64,000 nt of DNA from Spirochaetota bacterium. GTDB lineage: Bacteria; Spirochaetota; Spirochaetia; Treponematales; Treponemataceae. The position numbers were made by a program, and so were the translations under genes. The DNA lies in assembly GCA_029569885.1 (NCBI GenBank), contig JAKQSN010000034.1, positions 1,137 through 65,136 of the forward strand, in the 5' to 3' direction. The notes below the pieces were generated by a model. The model was not told where the DNA came from and did not search any database. It was given only the letters and a program-made list of their open reading frames with translations. Each line of letters begins with the position of its first letter. Position 1 is the stretch's first letter. Below, piece by piece: positions 23,323 through 31,231 of this stretch.

Positions 23323-23460
23323 CGTGCGCCAGATGTGTGTGCGCGCACATGTGCGCCAGACGTGTGCACCAGCGGCACCAGCGGCACCAGCTGCACCTGC
23401 GGCGCCCGCTGGATGGCTGCACCAGCGGCACCAGCTGCTCCCGCTGGATGGCGGGTGCCA
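23323..23460. repeat. GC-rich short tandem repeats upstream of gltX
   Basis: GTGCGCCAGA x2, GCACCAGCG 9-bp units, CCCGCTGGATGGC x2. Confidence 0.8.
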
Positions 23461-23528
23461 TCGGTCATCTTGTCCAATCGGCTGCAGAAAGGGTATACTT
23501 TCTTGGCTCAAATCGAAGGAGAATACCA

Positions 23529-25073
23529 GTGGAAGCTCGTGTCCGTTACGCACCGTCCCCAACCGGGATGCAGCATATCGGCGGTGTCCGCACCGCGTTG
23601 TTCAATTACCTGTACGCCCGCTCTGTAGGCGGAAAATTTATTCTGAGACTCGAAGATACCGATCAAACCCGCTACGGCGAGGAATATGTCCGCAACCTGT
23701 ACGATACTCTTGGCTGGCTCGGCATAGACTGGGACGAAGGCGGCGACAAGGGCGGTCCTTTTGCCCCCTATGTGCAAAGCCAACGGTTCGACCTGTATAA
23801 AAAGTACGCGCTTGAACTGGTGGAAAAAGGGCAGGCCTACTATTGCTTCTGCGACGAGGAACGTCTGGAACGTATCCGGAAAATTCAGACCATGAACAAA
23901 ATGGCTCCGGGCTACGACCGCCATTGCCGCTCCCTTTCTCCGCAGGAAGTGAAGGAAAGCCTCGACGCCGGCAAACCCTTTGTAATCCGGCTCGCAGTTC
24001 CGCTCGAAGGTTCAACCAAATTCCACGATCAGCTTCTTGGCGACATCGAGTGGAAGAACGAAGACGTCAATCCCGATCCCGTCCTGCTGAAAAGCGACGG
24101 CTTCCCGACCTATCACTTGGCAAATATCGTAGACGATCATTTTATGGAAATTACCCATGTCATGCGCGCGCAGGAGTGGATTCCCTCGACGCCGCTCCAC
24201 GTCATCATGTACAAGGCGTTCGGCTGGGAACATCCCGAATACTGCCACCTGCCGATGGTCATGGGCCAGGACGGCCAAAAACTGTCAAAACGCCACGGCG
24301 CAACCAGCTGCAACGAATTCCGCAACAACGGCTATCTGAAAGAAGCGATTATCAACTACGTCGCCATGCTCGGCTGCTCCTACGAGGACGGGCGCGACAT
24401 GTTCACGCTCGAAGAGCTTGGCAAGCTGTTCATGATGGAGCACATCAACAAGGCTCCTGCCGTGTTCGACTATAAAAAACTGGAGTGGTTCAACGGCCAG
24501 TACATGCGGCTCAAAACCGACGACGAGCTGTTCGACCTTACCTGGCCGTTTATCGCGAATTCCGGCCTGTTCGGCGGATGCGGCGAAGGCGAACAGAACA
24601 GTCTCGAAGCGCGAAAATCTGCAGGACTGTTGTTCGCCGATCAGACGCTGCTTGTTCCGACTGCAGCCCAAAAGGACACTCTGATGAAGGTTATGCCGCT
24701 CATCCGCGAACGCCTTCATTTTCTTACCGACGCACCTGCGATGGTCGCTTTTCTGTTTGGCGAACCCGTCATTCCCCCGGCAGAAGAAATTGTCCCGAAA
24801 AAGCTCGATGCGGCCAAAACGCGCGAAGTGCTGCGTGCCGCAAAGGATGTAATCGCAAAAATTGGCGGTCTGACCGAAGAACAGGCGAACGAACTTTTCC
24901 ATGCTGCCGCAGAAGCCCTTGGCGTCAAACTTGGCGACCTGATGATGCCCATCCGCATGGCGGTAACCGGAAGCCGCGTGTCTCCACCGCTTGTCGGTTC
25001 AATTCAGATTCTTGGTATCGAAGCCTCTCTTGCCCGCATCGACCGGACGCTTGCCGAACGTTTTCCCGGCTGA
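23529..25073 (+). CDS. gltX: glutamate--tRNA ligase
   Basis: RVRYAPSPTG, HIGG, RLEDTD, KLSKR; GTG start after RBS AAGGAG. Confidence 0.96.
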   Translation: MEARVRYAPSPTGMQHIGGVRTALFNYLYARSVGGKFILRLEDTDQTRYGEEYVRNLYDTLGWLGIDWDEGGDKGGPFAPYVQSQRFDLYKKYALELVEKGQAYYCFCDEERLERIRKIQTMNKMAPGYDRHCRSLSPQEVKESLDAGKPFVIRLAVPLEGSTKFHDQLLGDIEWKNEDVNPDPVLLKSDGFPTYHLANIVDDHFMEITHVMRAQEWIPSTPLHVIMYKAFGWEHPEYCHLPMVMGQDGQKLSKRHGATSCNEFRNNGYLKEAIINYVAMLGCSYEDGRDMFTLEELGKLFMMEHINKAPAVFDYKKLEWFNGQYMRLKTDDELFDLTWPFIANSGLFGGCGEGEQNSLEARKSAGLLFADQTLLVPTAAQKDTLMKVMPLIRERLHFLTDAPAMVAFLFGEPVIPPAEEIVPKKLDAAKTREVLRAAKDVIAKIGGLTEEQANELFHAAAEALGVKLGDLMMPIRMAVTGSRVSPPLVGSIQILGIEASLARIDRTLAERFPG

Positions 25074-25579: not shown

Positions 25580-26713
25580 ATGCTGTACTGTATGCTTACA
25601 ACAATCATGCGGGCTCTCGGTATGTATCGCGAAACGGTGTCTCGGGATTGCATGATCACGGGGAAAAACTTCGAATTCTGGAATTTTCTTGGCGAACGGG
25701 CTCCGGAAACCACTTTCGACCTTTTTGATGTATTCCCCGAGCTCGTCGGGCGAGAAACCGAGATTTCATGCCTTCTTTCTTCAGTCGGCGGTGTACTCAG
25801 GCTCCCGGCTGTCCGGCATGGGGTAGTGTGTTTTAATCTTTCAGTGCTTTCTCCTCCGGTCGGTTTTGAATGCGGGCTGATAATTCTTCAGGATATTTCG
25901 AATGATCTTGTGCATCATCATGCGGTTCTTCAAAAAAGAAACGAACTAGTGTTCCTGAACCGTCAGATCGAACTTCGCAATGCCGAGCTGGCTGAAGCCG
26001 GGCAAAAGCTGGACCGCATCATGAATATGCTTCGGGATGAAAGCCATGCGCTGAATCTTGAAGTGCTCAGGCAAACCCGGGAGCTCCATGATTCCCGCCT
26101 GTGCGCTATCAACACGCTTGCACAGGCAGCCGAGTTCCGCGAACAGGAAACTGGGGGTCACCTGTACCGTATCGGACGTTCCTGCGTTCTTATTGGTAAA
26201 AAGCTGGGAATGGAACGGTCTGCACTCGAGACCCTCTTTTATGCGTGTCTTTTGCATGATGTCGGAAAAATCGGCATTCCTGATTCAATTTTGCTCAAGC
26301 CGGGCTCGCTTGACGAAGACGAATGGGATATCATGCGCCGCCATACATCCATTGGGGCCGCGCTGTTGTCTAAAAATCGCCATAAGTTGTTCGATGCTGC
26401 CCGCGATGTTGCGTTATCGCATCATGAAAAATGGGACGGCACAGGCTATCCTGAAGGAATTTCCGGATACTCCATTCCCTTGGTGGCTCGAATTTGCGCT
26501 GTGGCAGATGTGTACGACGCTCTTGTTTCTGCACGCATCTACAAAAAAGCCTGGCTGCCCGATGATGCAGTTCGTACTATTATCAGAGAATCCGGCACCC
26601 GCTTTGATCCTGCAGTTGTTTCTGCCTTTATAGCGGTGTATCCCGAAATTCACCAGCTGGAAAAGCATTCCGACGAGGAAATTGACGAGCTGGAACCGGA
26701 GTTCGATACATGA
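25580..26713 (+). CDS. HD-GYP cyclic-dinucleotide phosphodiesterase with N-terminal PAS-like and coiled-coil regions
   Basis: ETGGHLYR, LHDVGKIGIPD, HHEKWDGTGYP, VADVYDAL, RIYK. Confidence 0.92.
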   Translation: MLYCMLTTIMRALGMYRETVSRDCMITGKNFEFWNFLGERAPETTFDLFDVFPELVGRETEISCLLSSVGGVLRLPAVRHGVVCFNLSVLSPPVGFECGLIILQDISNDLVHHHAVLQKRNELVFLNRQIELRNAELAEAGQKLDRIMNMLRDESHALNLEVLRQTRELHDSRLCAINTLAQAAEFREQETGGHLYRIGRSCVLIGKKLGMERSALETLFYACLLHDVGKIGIPDSILLKPGSLDEDEWDIMRRHTSIGAALLSKNRHKLFDAARDVALSHHEKWDGTGYPEGISGYSIPLVARICAVADVYDALVSARIYKKAWLPDDAVRTIIRESGTRFDPAVVSAFIAVYPEIHQLEKHSDEEIDELEPEFDT

Positions 26714-27567
26714 TGCACAACACAATTCTCTCGGAACGGGTGGCATCAATTCTGGCGTTTCTTTCGCTTCTGTCCGGACCTGTCCTGACATCTGTCGATC
26801 CTTCAATTTCTGGCGACATCGGCTCTCTGCTGGACTTTGCGCAAAACCCGACGCGTGAAAAGATTTACCGGATTAAATCGCTGATTCGCGTGTATGCGAT
26901 TCTGTTTGCCTGGGGAGTGTTCTCCAGTGATCAGAATCTGGATCGGGAAACCGACGAGTTGCTCCTGTATCTTGATTCTCTTGTACCTAATTCGAGTTTT
27001 TTGCTTGCACGGCGGGAATTCGTTCCCCGGACTCTCGGTGCTGTCAGCGTACGGAAAGCGCTGGCCGTACCGTTGTTCGGCTATCATCGGCCGGAAACGC
27101 CGCCGCGCGGTCCCGGGCATGTGCTATGTTATCAATCGGTTGAATCCGGCGAAACCGGTACAATCGAAATTCTACGCCTTGACCGAAACGCGACAGTTTC
27201 CTACGAAGGTTTGGGTACGCGGCTGTCGACATCCAATCCGCGTCTGTGCGTCAGAATTGCCAAAACGGGACACGACCCCTTGGTTACTCTTGTTCCTCCA
27301 TTTTCCCGGAACCATTGTACCCGCTTTTCCAATGGCCGGTATGAGCTGTTTTTGGCTGATTCCCCTCTGGTATATTCTGGAAAAGCGGACCGGCGCGGCA
27401 AAAATTGCGATCTGTACGATCCGCTCGAGTTCCGCTATGTCTACTTTTTTCCCCCGGAAACGCAACGTCCGGTACGATTTCTCCGCGACGTGCTTACGTC
27501 AATGTATGGATTTACAAAAGATACGGTTGAGCCGATAGTGTCCGCAATTACTGAAAAACTGCCTTGA
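26710..27567 (+). CDS. hypothetical protein
   Basis: 285-aa ORF coupled by an ATGA overlap to the HD-GYP gene; no motif recognised. Confidence 0.65.
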   Translation: MMHNTILSERVASILAFLSLLSGPVLTSVDPSISGDIGSLLDFAQNPTREKIYRIKSLIRVYAILFAWGVFSSDQNLDRETDELLLYLDSLVPNSSFLLARREFVPRTLGAVSVRKALAVPLFGYHRPETPPRGPGHVLCYQSVESGETGTIEILRLDRNATVSYEGLGTRLSTSNPRLCVRIAKTGHDPLVTLVPPFSRNHCTRFSNGRYELFLADSPLVYSGKADRRGKNCDLYDPLEFRYVYFFPPETQRPVRFLRDVLTSMYGFTKDTVEPIVSAITEKLP

Positions 27568-29113
27568 ATGTGACGCTTCTGTTTTTTATCCGGTCTTCTT
27601 CGGTTTTTTCTTCGGCAACAACCGGTTCCGCAACACCGACTCCCCGTGCGCTCACATATTCAACCAGCGGCGCGTTGATCTCGATAAATGCGTCAAGCGC
27701 CATGTTTGCCCGCTCTTCGCTTATCCGGATTCCTGCCTCATCCTGTATCGATCCGGCTGAATGTCCGGTAATTTCTACCGTAGCGGTAAAACCTTCCTTT
27801 TTTGACTCCTCGACAAGCAGCGAGACCAGTTCGCCCGCTTCCATGAGTATTTGCCCCTGACCGTCCCGAAGGCTTCCTGAGTCTTGTTCGAAGTACACAT
27901 TATATGCGGCAAGCCTGCGGGCAATTTCCAGCAAGTGTTCCGGTATGTTTCGTTGAGGTGCTGCAGGAGGTTCCGAAAAATGCGGAGACCAAAAGGCTTC
28001 TTCGGAAATGGTAAAATCGTCGAGTTGTAGACCGTGTTCTGCGATTATCTGTTCAAGGCTGCGCGCTCTGGCGTCTCTCAATACCGAGAGTTTGACCGTC
28101 CTGAATGTGCGTGTCGTAGAAATAAGCTGAATGCCTGTTTCGGCATCGATGGCGTCGATGCATCGGTTCTCTTGGCCGGTTTTCAGCGCATGCTTTACTC
28201 CGAAAAATCCCGCTGCGAGGGCGACTATCGTCAGAAACACAATGGCGAATACCGGTTTTTTGTGTTTTGTTTCGCGAATTTTGCAGGAAAGGCAGGCTTC
28301 CAGAAGCTCTGTATCCTTTTCAAACGGGAGCGTATCGCCGCGAAACGATTTCAATGCGCCGGCAAAACGAACATGAATTGCTTCGAGCGTGTGCTGCATC
28401 AGTGTGCGGACTGAAGGTTCGGGTGTTCCGCGGATAATCAGCGCGAGCGAGGCTTTCGGACCTTCTTCGACAAGGATTGTGTAATCGCCAGTGTTGATCC
28501 CCTGTACACCGCTTGTCTCGGCAAGCTGAAGCGAATCGCCAATATACTGGCGGATTGCCGTCAGCATGGAGCTGACCATATCGTCATCGGCAGTAGCGCA
28601 TCCCGCTCTGGATACGCTTTTCAGGAGCAAGCCGGTGTTTTTATGAATCAGAAATGCATGATCGATGCTGTACTCCATTGTATGGGCAAGCATAATCTCC
28701 AGGAACGGTTTTCCTGTTTTTATGGATTCGAACCGCCAGACAAGCCGCTGTACAGAAAAGACAGACTCCAGGCCAGAGTTCATATTGGCCATCATTTCCG
28801 CAAGCATTTTTGCCATCGCCTTGCGGATTGCGCTCCCGATTACCGGAAACAGTGCTCCGGAAAGAATTTCCGGATCTTTTTGCACCGAAAGACCGATTGC
28901 GTCTTCGGTCAGCGGTGTCATTGCAGAGGCTATGGCCTGCCGTTGTTCGCCGGATTCATCCAGCGCCTCGGGAAGCATTTGGGCAAGCGTTTCCGGCGTG
29001 ACCGACGCGCCTCGCAGTTTTTTTCCCAGTTGTTCAAGGGTTTTTCGTTCGCGCGGATCAAGATCCACGATTGCTTCTTCGATACGAACCTTGAGAGCCT
29101 CATTTTCAGTCAT
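27548..29113 (-). CDS. membrane protein: helical N-terminus, longin/roadblock-like domain, TM, C-terminal OmpA/MotB-like domain
   Basis: TM PVFAIVFLTIVALAAGFFGV; OmpA-like VYFEQDS...ITGHS...ISEERA...ARGVGVAEP...NRSVTF. Confidence 0.8.
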   Translation of the reverse strand: MTENEALKVRIEEAIVDLDPRERKTLEQLGKKLRGASVTPETLAQMLPEALDESGEQRQAIASAMTPLTEDAIGLSVQKDPEILSGALFPVIGSAIRKAMAKMLAEMMANMNSGLESVFSVQRLVWRFESIKTGKPFLEIMLAHTMEYSIDHAFLIHKNTGLLLKSVSRAGCATADDDMVSSMLTAIRQYIGDSLQLAETSGVQGINTGDYTILVEEGPKASLALIIRGTPEPSVRTLMQHTLEAIHVRFAGALKSFRGDTLPFEKDTELLEACLSCKIRETKHKKPVFAIVFLTIVALAAGFFGVKHALKTGQENRCIDAIDAETGIQLISTTRTFRTVKLSVLRDARARSLEQIIAEHGLQLDDFTISEEAFWSPHFSEPPAAPQRNIPEHLLEIARRLAAYNVYFEQDSGSLRDGQGQILMEAGELVSLLVEESKKEGFTATVEITGHSAGSIQDEAGIRISEERANMALDAFIEINAPLVEYVSARGVGVAEPVVAEEKTEEDRIKNRSVTFKAVFQ

Positions 29114-29615
29114 TCTGCGTTTCCACCATACGGATCGCGATCGCTTCGAATGCTTCTTCGACGCCCATTCCTGTTTTTGCGCTGGTGTTCAGCACCATCT
29201 GACCCGGTTGCGTCAAGCCGGTTTCGGTTCCTTCCGGAACTGCCCAGACATGTGCAAGATCATATTTATTCAGAAGCAGTACCGAAGGCGTATCCGGAAA
29301 GAATTGTTTCATCTGTGCAGATATGGATTGTGCGGTTGCGATGGTTTCGGGGTTGGTACCGTCGGCGACAACAAAATAGCCAGACATTCCCTTGAGGTAT
29401 GTATCGATGATTCTGTGAAAATCATCGCTTCCTTCAAGATCCCAGATGACAAGCAGTATTTCTTTGTTGCCGTCCAGTATGAGGTTTTTCTTTTCTATTT
29501 TGACGCCGATCGTTGTGATGTATTCATCGGAAAAAATATTTTGGACATACTTGCGTATCAGACTTGTTTTTCCGACGCCGAAGGTTCCCAACAGGCAAAT
29601 TTTCTTTTTAATCAT
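29106..29615 (-). CDS. Rab/Ras-like small GTPase
   Basis: G1 GTFGVGKTS, G2 YITTIGV, G3 IWDLEG, G4 NKYD, G5 TSAKTG; 169 aa. Confidence 0.93.
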   Translation of the reverse strand: MIKKKICLLGTFGVGKTSLIRKYVQNIFSDEYITTIGVKIEKKNLILDGNKEILLVIWDLEGSDDFHRIIDTYLKGMSGYFVVADGTNPETIATAQSISAQMKQFFPDTPSVLLLNKYDLAHVWAVPEGTETGLTQPGQMVLNTSAKTGMGVEEAFEAIAIRMVETQND

Positions 29616-29875
29616 CGAGTAAAGTCCGTATTGAGTGCATGTACTGGCATGTGCTTACAACGCATGATATGTTTATGATAATACGGAAACAGGTATCCTG
29701 CAATCCTGAATGAACAGCCGATATACAATCCTTCAAAAGATGTGGTAGTATGAGGGATACAACATACGTGCCTCGGGATAGGCATAGCCGATATCCCCTG
29801 GAACGTCGGGCTGATCCGAACAGCGGCAGCCTGCCGTTTCTTGCCTCCAGCGGGGCCGAAGGAGAATCCTTACAA

Positions 29876-31231
29876 ATGGAAGATCACTCGATTTCAATGG
29901 AAAAAATCGTAAGCCTGTGCAAAAGGCGCGGTTTTGTATTCCAGTCCTCCGAAATCTACGGCGGACAAAACGGTGCCTGGGACTACGGTCCACTCGGCAT
30001 AGAACTGAAAAACAACATTCAGAAAGCCTGGTGGAAAGAGATGACACAGCTGCATGACAGCATTGTCGGTCTCGATGCCGCCATTCTTATGCATCCCCGC
30101 GTATGGGAAGCTTCCGGCCATGTCGCCAACTTTTCTGATCCGCTTGTCGACTGCAAGGACTGCAAGAGCCGCTTCCGGGCAGACGACGACACCCAGATAT
30201 CGCCGGAAAATGTCGCCGCGCGAAAATGCCCCAAATGCGGTGGACCGCTGACCGAACCCCGTTCGTTCAACCTGATGTTCAAGACTACCATTGGTCCCGC
30301 GGAGGATTCCTCTTCCGTGATCTACCTCAGACCTGAAACAGCACAGGGTATTTACGTCAACTACAAGAATATCGCCCAGTCGAACCGCCTCAAGATTCCC
30401 TTCGGAATTGCGCAGGTGGGAAAGGCGTTCCGCAACGAAATCGTAACCAAGAACTTTATTTTCCGCACCTGCGAATTCGAGCAGATGGAAATGCAGTTTT
30501 TCGTCAAACCCGGCGAAGACGAGAAGTTCTTTGAATACTGGCGGGAACAGCGCATGAGCTACTATCCGAAATACGGAATCCGTAAGGAAAAGCTCCGCTG
30601 GCATCATCACGAAAAGCTCGCTCATTACGCCAAGGACGCCTACGACATCGAATTTGAATTCCCGATGGGATTCCAGGAGCTTGAAGGTATCCACAACCGC
30701 ACTGATTTTGATCTTACCCAGCATACCAAGTACTCGGGTAAAGATCTTCAGTATATCGACCAGGATAACGGCAACGAGCGCTACATCCCGTACATTATCG
30801 AAACCAGCGCCGGATTAACCCGCAATGTGCTTATGTTCCTCTGCGATTCCTACGAAGAAGAAAAAGTAGCCGACAAGGGCAACGATGACGACTGGCGAAC
30901 CGTTCTCCGATTCCACCCGCTTATTGCTCCGGTAACGGTTGCGATCCTTCCGCTCATGAAAAAAGACGGACTTGCAGAGCTTGCACAGGATATCCGCAAC
31001 GAACTGAAAGAAGACTTCATGACTGATTACGACCAGTCCGGCGCCATCGGCAAGCGATACCGCCGCCAGGATGAAATCGGCACACCGTTCTGCGTCACCG
31101 TTGACTACGATTCCAAGGAAGACAATACGGTAACCCTCAGGTTCCGCGACTCCATGGAGCAGATCCGGGTTCCCCGGTCCGAGCTTGCAGCCCGGATTCG
31201 AGCGGAGATAAAGAACTACAAGCGGGTGTAG
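29876..31231 (+). CDS. glyQS: glycine--tRNA ligase (alpha2 type)
   Basis: [45 protein letters not shown]. Confidence 0.96.

Follow-up and report, generated by a model that had tools for sequence, protein, structure and literature searches.

Longin/roadblock and PAS folds predicted for the membrane and output proteins of a Group 1 Rup small-GTPase system in its spirochaete variant

Do the four overlapping genes that lie between gltX and glyQS in a Treponemataceae bacterium (phylum Spirochaetota; GenBank assembly GCA_029569885.1) form one signalling system, and is that system a new one? The genes encode a Rab-like small GTPase, a membrane protein with an OmpA-like domain, an HD-GYP protein and a protein named here P4, and they were studied within a stretch of 64,000 nucleotides (contig JAKQSN010000034.1, positions 1,137 to 65,136 of the forward strand), which we call the window. 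An initial annotation, made from the letters alone, had described two convergent pairs of overlapping genes at this place, and so it proved. All four open reading frames (ORFs) were verified in the ORF list of the window at the positions first assigned to them; the GTPase and membrane-protein genes share 8 bp (ATGACTGA), the HD-GYP and P4 genes share 4 bp (ATGA), and the P4 gene is translationally coupled to the HD-GYP gene. The membrane-protein and P4 genes converge, and their 3' ends share 20 bp (27548-27567). The comparison with other genomes described below indicates that this is a real, coherent four-gene system. The folds guessed at in the annotation and its link between the HD-GYP gene and the GTPase are supported, whereas its presentation of the assembly as a candidate new system is not, because both the four-part system and the supply of a Gln in trans have already been published (PMC4316618).

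The GTPase has a complete set of motifs (G1 GTFGVGKT, switch I YITTIGV, G3 WDLEGS, G4 NKYD and G5 SAK), in which the G3 motif lacks the catalytic Gln. In an alignment of 80 GTPase homologues, the window copy included, 42 have E and just 8 have Q directly after the G3 Gly; GxxxxGKT, T35, WDxxG, NKxD and SAK are invariant or nearly so, the G1, G4 and G5 motifs being unchanging. The name Rab-like given to it in the annotation agrees with its closest solved chains by sequence, which are Rab35, Rab1B and Rab5 (expect value, E, about 5e-21). The C-terminus (...VETQND) has no Cys and hence no prenylation site. With neither a Gln in G3 nor a C-terminal Cys, the protein falls outside what defines a eukaryotic Rab, and 'Rab-like' is a fair description of its similarity, not of membership of the Rab family. 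It is the sole gene of its type in this genome. The position equivalent to Gly12 of Ras (codon 12, 29580-29582) is Phe, and 75 of the 80 homologues have Phe or Tyr there; such a bulky aromatic residue would be expected to exclude an arginine finger of the RasGAP type.

A system of this composition was described by Wuichet and Sogaard-Andersen (Genome Biol Evol 7:57), whose Group 1 Rup proteins are Ras-like GTPases without the G3 Gln (PMC4316618). They belong to a four-gene neighbourhood that also encodes a coiled-coil protein, a protein made of an unknown ('Unc') domain, a transmembrane (TM) helix and an OmpA domain, and an output protein of the GGDEF/EAL or kinase type, whose N-terminal region has an invariant Gln proposed to be supplied to the GTPase in trans (PMC4316618). 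The logic proposed is that of a membrane signalling complex, and for Rup GTPases no cooperation with partners of the MglB type is predicted (PMC4316618). This computational catalogue of 2014-15 gives no fold to the Unc domain or to the output N-terminal region, and spirochaetes appear in neither its text nor its tables (PMC4316618).

Judged by motifs and context, the four genes of the window are a spirochaete variant of the Group 1 Rup system. The two have in common a Ras/Rab-like GTPase without the G3 Gln, an output N-terminal region with an invariant Gln, and a neighbour with a conserved domain, one TM helix and OmpA; loci of the published type in cyanobacteria, acidobacteria and Nitrospira encode members of the same domain family. 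Here, in contrast, the GTPase gene lies upstream of the membrane-protein gene and not downstream, the output is an HD-GYP protein where the paper names GGDEF/EAL fusions and kinases, and this output is encoded in a convergent operon with the extra gene P4, the operons overlapping tail to tail. Nor was a coiled-coil protein found, and the two domains that had been left without a fold model here as longin/roadblock and PAS. As the system itself is already in the literature, what is specific to the present locus is the coiled-coil component that was not found, the lineage-specific P4 and the tail-to-tail overlap of the operons.

The survey of gene neighbourhoods that the initial annotation had suggested as a check was made by calling ORFs in 86 loci and searching them with the window proteins, and it revealed conserved co-occurrence. 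The GTPase and membrane-protein genes are adjacent in every locus that has both (80 of 86); the remaining six show no GTPase gene, three of them ending at or just past the membrane-protein gene and three continuing for 0.7-5.8 kb. Loci outside the window clade usually begin with the coiled-coil gene, continue with the genes for the membrane protein and the GTPase, and close with one or two output genes. Of 78 non-spirochaete loci, 76 have the coiled-coil gene, as against 0 of 9 loci of the window clade. The convergent arrangement recurs in 8 other spirochaete loci at 43-54% identity and with different outer flanks, which argues that it is more than chance. The tail-to-tail overlap itself, at 20-26 bp, is kept in six relatives with intact genes (loci L002 and L007-L011) and about 45-55% protein identity.

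The HD-GYP gene is linked to the GTPase by the N-terminus of its product. Rup output proteins start with one of two domains, labelled here A (about 128 aa) and B (about 150-190 aa), and a jackhmmer search begun from the N-terminus of the window HD-GYP protein reaches the canonical A family next to Rup GTPase genes. Spirochaete and canonical A alignments, built separately and compared with hhalign, match with 95.3% probability (E 2.4e-8, 109 columns). All 9 spirochaete copies retain Q118 of the window protein, which lines up with a Gln present in 33 of 34 canonical A copies. The two kinds of output domain may be distantly related: in hhalign the spirochaete A domain matches B with E 0.0022 and just 13% probability, and the canonical A with 0.4%. 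A and B domains are fused to outputs as different as histidine kinase, sigma-54 activator, nucleotide cyclase, HD-GYP and PP2C phosphatase, and the presence of the A domain on many different outputs is the usual pattern of a shared input domain. Stand-alone A proteins of 125-137 aa are encoded directly after the GTPase gene in cyanobacteria (L016:9191-9592, L058:9167-9580 and others), where a separate B-domain output gene comes next. These stand-alone proteins retain the invariant Gln although they have no output domain. Since its A domain belongs to a conserved Rup-associated family and an A-HD-GYP gene of this kind comes after the GTPase gene within one operon in other spirochaetes, the HD-GYP gene is, on this comparative evidence, functionally tied to the GTPase/membrane-protein pair, as the annotation had supposed.

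The A domain was modelled with AlphaFold2 (AF2) at a predicted local distance difference test (pLDDT) of 94.8, giving a PAS fold followed by a long helix (residues 107-134) that bears Q118. Its best 50 structural matches are all PAS, LOV, PYP or phytochrome PAS domains, with PYP on top (Z 10.8). The PAS/HD-GYP protein DvhD (PDB 9rc0) aligns over model residues 1-135 with Z 9.5 and a root-mean-square deviation (rmsd) of 3.8 for 125 aligned residues. DvhD-type phosphodiesterases have the same succession of PAS fold, connecting helix and HD-GYP catalytic domain; in the window protein, however, the PAS-like domain is of a family encoded beside Rup GTPase genes in the loci examined. At the level of sequence, none of the Pfam PAS models matches the HD-GYP protein with an E of 0.1 or lower, and the A-domain profile finds nothing among PDB sequences; one relative has a weak match to PAS_4 (8.8e-4). 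On the predicted model, then, the PAS-like N-terminus proposed in the annotation is borne out. The catalytic domain matches Pfam HD_5 with E 9.1e-34, and LLHDVGK and HHEKWDGTGYP can be read in the translation. With intact HD and GYP motifs the protein would be a phosphodiesterase of cyclic di-GMP (c-di-GMP), a messenger that is in use here as judged by 20 GGDEF matches in the genome.

Gene order is reshuffled among spirochaete families while the partners remain together. The closed spirochaete genome of locus L102 encodes on one strand the membrane protein, an A-PAS-PP2C protein, the GTPase and an A-HD-GYP protein, so that here A-HD-GYP follows the GTPase in one operon; in another spirochaete (L101) the membrane protein, the GTPase and an A-PP2C protein are accompanied by a convergent A-HD-GYP gene. 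In a third spirochaete family (L099:6337-9587) an A histidine kinase, a P4-like ORF of 108 aa and the membrane protein are on one strand, and the GTPase gene of that genome is on another contig. Of 201 genomes sampled from the family of the window organism, the same 3, all of one genus, encode the GTPase, the membrane protein and P4, and across the phylum Spirochaetota the membrane protein was found in 25 of 401 genomes. In a quick, unrooted tree the nine sequences of the convergent type form one group (support 100) and all 21 spirochaete sequences fall on one side of a well-supported branch, a topology that old inheritance with much loss fits better than recent transfer. Comparison of these loci shows joint inheritance of the genes for the GTPase, the membrane protein, P4 and the output protein with its A domain.

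A direct contact between the GTPase and the A domain was also assessed, as the annotation had proposed, by prediction of their complex. The pair reached an ipSAE of 0.60 (the three runs ranging over 0.59-0.61), where the best of three controls scored 0.01, with a partner pLDDT of at least 82 and at least 96% of contacts agreeing between runs. In calibration 58 of 80 solved complexes passed, as did 2 of 110 mismatched pairs, and passes at 0.60 or below comprised 7 of the 80 solved complexes plus both mismatches. Taken with the genomic prior, the score gives weak support, suggesting a modest rise in the odds that GTPase and A domain bind; it carries nothing on Q118.

The membrane protein has a single hydrophobic helix by hydropathy (residues ~285-310), which separates a cytoplasmic part from the periplasmic modules. 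An AF2 model of residues 1-285, built with 22 homologues, is helical and poorly defined over residues 1-145, and confident (pLDDT about 90) over residues 146-280, where it has the order beta-beta-alpha-beta-beta-beta-alpha with its strands and helices over 146-249. As determined with VIA-align, the closest structure is Fuzzy of the CPLANE complex (7q3d_C, Z 13.1, rmsd 2.9, 124 aligned), and the other matches include the VAMP7 longin domain (12.9), Sec22 (12.5), Mon1/Ccz1 (about 11), TRAPP Bet5 (11.0), an Asgard roadblock protein (Z 10.9) and MglB (3t1r_A, Z 10.8, rmsd 2.6, 107 aligned). The best 50 rows are all longin/roadblock proteins, and the Foldseek list agrees on the families. Residues 146-280 therefore model as a longin/roadblock fold, and the longin-like domain that had been guessed at from the sequence is upheld by the predicted structure. 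Against Pfam, longin and Robl_LC7 included, the cytoplasmic domain gave no match at E 0.1 or better, and its profile found nothing among PDB sequences.

These structural matches place the membrane protein beside two kinds of known partner. The MglA-MglB pair of Myxococcus and Thermus and the actinobacterial conservons (CvnB/CvnD, MfpB/MfpD) likewise have a gene for a small Ras-superfamily GTPase next to that of a roadblock-fold regulator. In the window, however, the GTPase is of the Rup and not the MglA type, the roadblock/longin domain sits within a putatively wall-anchored membrane protein instead of a soluble dimer, and, unlike MglB, it has no match to Robl_LC7 in sequence. The longin Rab guanine nucleotide exchange factors (GEFs) of eukaryotes (Mon1-Ccz1, TRAPP and Fuzzy-Inturned/CPLANE) are the proteins that the cytoplasmic domain resembles best in structure (Z 11-13.1); this likeness is one of predicted fold, at 7-16% identity, and here there is neither a heterodimer partner nor a prenylation site.

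On the periplasmic side, the C-terminus of the membrane protein scores 21.2 bits (E 3.9e-4) against Pfam OmpA (PF00691), whose cut-off is 27.2 bits. An NCBIfam model for a peptidoglycan anchor of the PA1041 type matches at 1.9e-7, and several relatives have a precomputed match to PF00691. The domain reads GHSA...ISEERA where GHTD...LSxxRA is usual, the Arg of LSxxRA being retained, and GHSAG in place of the canonical GHTD is found in this spirochaete clade. The peptidoglycan of Treponema contains ornithine where most Gram-negative bacteria have diaminopimelate, and the GHSA change might relate to this ornithine-type peptidoglycan. The periplasmic juxtamembrane module (residues 306-400) has no match in the Atlas. 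Between its TM helix and its OmpA-like domain the window protein has a single copy of a periplasmic module of about 70 residues, to which three long, distant homologues (P0023, P0024 and P0027; 683-894 aa) add from one to five further copies.

P4 matches nothing in Pfam, NCBIfam or PADLOC; its sequence is present in the Atlas with a poor model (pLDDT 0.38) whose structural matches are meaningless. As a relative of the coiled-coil protein or of the A or B family it was rejected, with hhalign probabilities of 0.1%, and so was a signal peptide, the N-terminal hydrophobic stretch not being kept in relatives. Homologues occur in 8 spirochaete loci and, in the loci and genomes searched, solely alongside the GTPase system. 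P4 is lineage-specific, and as an accessory it may take the place of the coiled-coil protein, which was not found here. It changes fast, with 31% identity within the genus where the membrane proteins of the same genomes match at 1e-115 or better, around a conserved core rich in Pro and Gly (P106, L109, G110, PLFG 121-124, R127 and P128). Anti-phage defence was considered for the locus and rejected, PADLOC giving just weak matches of the MotB and HD types.

The coordinates of the genes and domains are collected in Table 1. The HD-GYP ORF has two in-frame ATGs (25580 and 25592); relatives align from Met5 (25592), and the true start may therefore lie there, four codons after the annotated one. 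A promoter scan returned 2 promoter-like sites against 3.9 expected and is uninformative; a terminator scan returned 12 terminator-like sites against 6.5 expected, with none at gene ends and none in the overlap of the convergent genes. RNA-library contigs from two libraries span, at 99% identity, parts of all four genes and both gene junctions, with DNA carry-over possible, and since two further RNA libraries contain contigs of 5-15 kb resembling DNA, such contigs do not prove transcription. The stretch was recovered in activated-sludge and anaerobic-digester metagenomes from 13 studies.

Table 1. Genes and domains of the four-gene block and its flanks, in positions of the window
Feature	Position	Strand	Description
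Class I Glu/Gln tRNA synthetase	23337-25073		Flank of the four-gene block
HD-GYP output protein	25580-26713	+	377 aa; PAS-like A domain, coiled-coil linker, HD-GYP domain
Rup-associated PAS-fold A domain with C-terminal helix (predicted)	25580-25984	+	HD-GYP-protein residues 1-135; Gln118 codon 25931-25933; AF2, hhalign
HD-GYP catalytic domain	26114-26617	+	Residues 179-346; HD and GYP motifs intact
P4, unknown ORF	26710-27567	+	285 aa; matches no family
Membrane protein 'Unc-TM-OmpA'	27548-29113	-	521 aa; 285-aa cytoplasmic part, one TM helix, periplasmic juxtamembrane module, OmpA-like domain
OmpA-like (peptidoglycan-binding type) domain	27569-27901	-	Membrane-protein residues 405-515; Pfam OmpA below cut-off, NCBIfam PA1041 anchor, alignment
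Single transmembrane helix	28196-28258	-	Membrane-protein residues ~286-306; Lys/Arg-rich stretch just before; hydropathy maximum 2.65 at 285-310
Longin/roadblock-fold domain (predicted)	28274-28678	-	Membrane-protein residues 146-280; AF2 model, VIA-align, Foldseek
Rup-type (Rab-like) small GTPase	29106-29615	-	169 aa; Pfam Ras E 2.6e-28, Roc 1.2e-21
Class II synthetase with HGTP anticodon domain	29750-31231		Other flank; glycyl-tRNA synthetase gene

We consider it fairly probable that the four genes form one signalling system, a spirochaete variant of Group 1 Rup, that works as follows. The OmpA-like end would anchor the membrane protein, probably a dimer, to peptidoglycan, and its longin/roadblock domain would serve as a platform on which the GTPase docks and by which its nucleotide state is set, a role as GEF or recruiter being thought likelier than one as GTPase-activating protein (GAP). 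The GTP-bound GTPase would then bind the PAS-like domain of the HD-GYP enzyme and so alter c-di-GMP hydrolysis via the connecting helix. Gln118 on this helix may complete the active site of the Gln-less GTPase, in which case the effector would also switch the GTPase off. A bolder form of this proposal, which we regard as possible though doubtful, is a complete GEF-GTPase-effector/GAP cycle of the eukaryotic type across the envelope. In it the longin domain would load the GTPase according to the state of the periplasm or wall, the PAS-fold domain would be a new class of small-GTPase effector that supplies Q118 in trans, so that each output times its own activation, and P4 would replace the coiled-coil component.

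Several points weigh against the proposed mechanism. The longin and PAS folds both rest on predicted models, neither with a sequence match to a solved protein or Pfam family, and the direction of signal flow rests on inference. The score of the GTPase-A domain complex lies in the weak band of the calibration and, given without an interface, does not place Q118 relative to the nucleotide. Q118 and a conserved Leu (125/126) are one heptad apart, a spacing that a polar residue buried within a signalling coiled coil would fit as well; on the supply of the Gln in trans two observations thus oppose each other, this heptad spacing and the retention of the Gln in A domains that have no output. The OmpA match below the Pfam cut-off, together with the degenerate GHSA, means that peptidoglycan binding is not assured in this lineage. 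A search of this genome (89.6% complete) and of four related spirochaete genomes did not find the coiled-coil protein, while the positive control genome scored 4.5e-72. Finally, the literature searched contained no experimental or biochemical follow-up on any Group 1 Rup system.

Signal flow could also run the other way, from inside to outside. The PAS proteins would then sense a ligand and act on the GTPase as GAPs or regulators, and the true effector would be the membrane protein, changing its hold on the wall or outer membrane, with HD-GYP as a parallel output that the GTPase does not control. Ligand sensing is typical of PAS domains, one-pass inner-membrane proteins of the MotB and TssL types use their OmpA-like domains as mechanical anchors, and the membrane protein itself weakly matches the long form of TssL (6.7e-4) and ZorB/MotB (4.8e-4); the invariant Gln would also suit a GAP (PMC4316618). 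The constant position of the A domain, N-terminal to very different outputs, nevertheless suggests that it receives a common signal, and stand-alone A domains without any output are likewise at odds with this reading, which we hold to be rather unlikely. It is also conceivable, though decidedly unlikely in our judgement, that the GTP-bound GTPase merely places HD-GYP at sites marked by the longin protein, such as the poles or the division site, where it would create local c-di-GMP sinks at an unchanged catalytic rate. Longin/roadblock platforms and Rab-like GTPases act mainly by localisation, as in the Rab, Rag and MglA systems. This role and the fold matches speak for such recruitment, and the GTPase, having no lipid anchor, would need its membrane partner to be positioned; the PAS-helix-output layout is, however, the classical allosteric arrangement, and a sigma-54 activator would gain little from being placed at the membrane.

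The simplest alternative is that the two convergent operons are unrelated neighbours and that the system consists of the GTPase/membrane-protein pair alone. The operons are indeed on opposite strands in the window and share no promoter. We nevertheless consider this very improbable, as the comparative data already contradict it: the convergence is kept in 8 relatives with different flanks and the overlap in the six that are intact, the HD-GYP N-terminus is a Rup-specific A domain, A-domain genes are co-directional with the GTPase or membrane-protein gene in other spirochaete families, and P4 strictly co-occurs with the pair.

Searched against the protein library, the profile of the cytoplasmic part of the membrane partner matches 6110 cluster representatives, of which 2275 have an E of 1e-30 or lower, and the domain is carried by at least 583 species genomes of many phyla; Group 1 Rup systems are, by this measure, widespread. 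The spirochaete form adds one unexplained component, P4, and it is a convenient one in which to ask whether the longin platform acts as GEF or GAP and whether the Gln is supplied in trans, because it is reduced, having no coiled-coil protein, and its output, c-di-GMP hydrolysis, can be assayed. If the longin/roadblock fold of this constant neighbour of Rup GTPases is true, the pairing of small GTPases with such platforms, which is central to eukaryotic trafficking, would be general in bacteria too.

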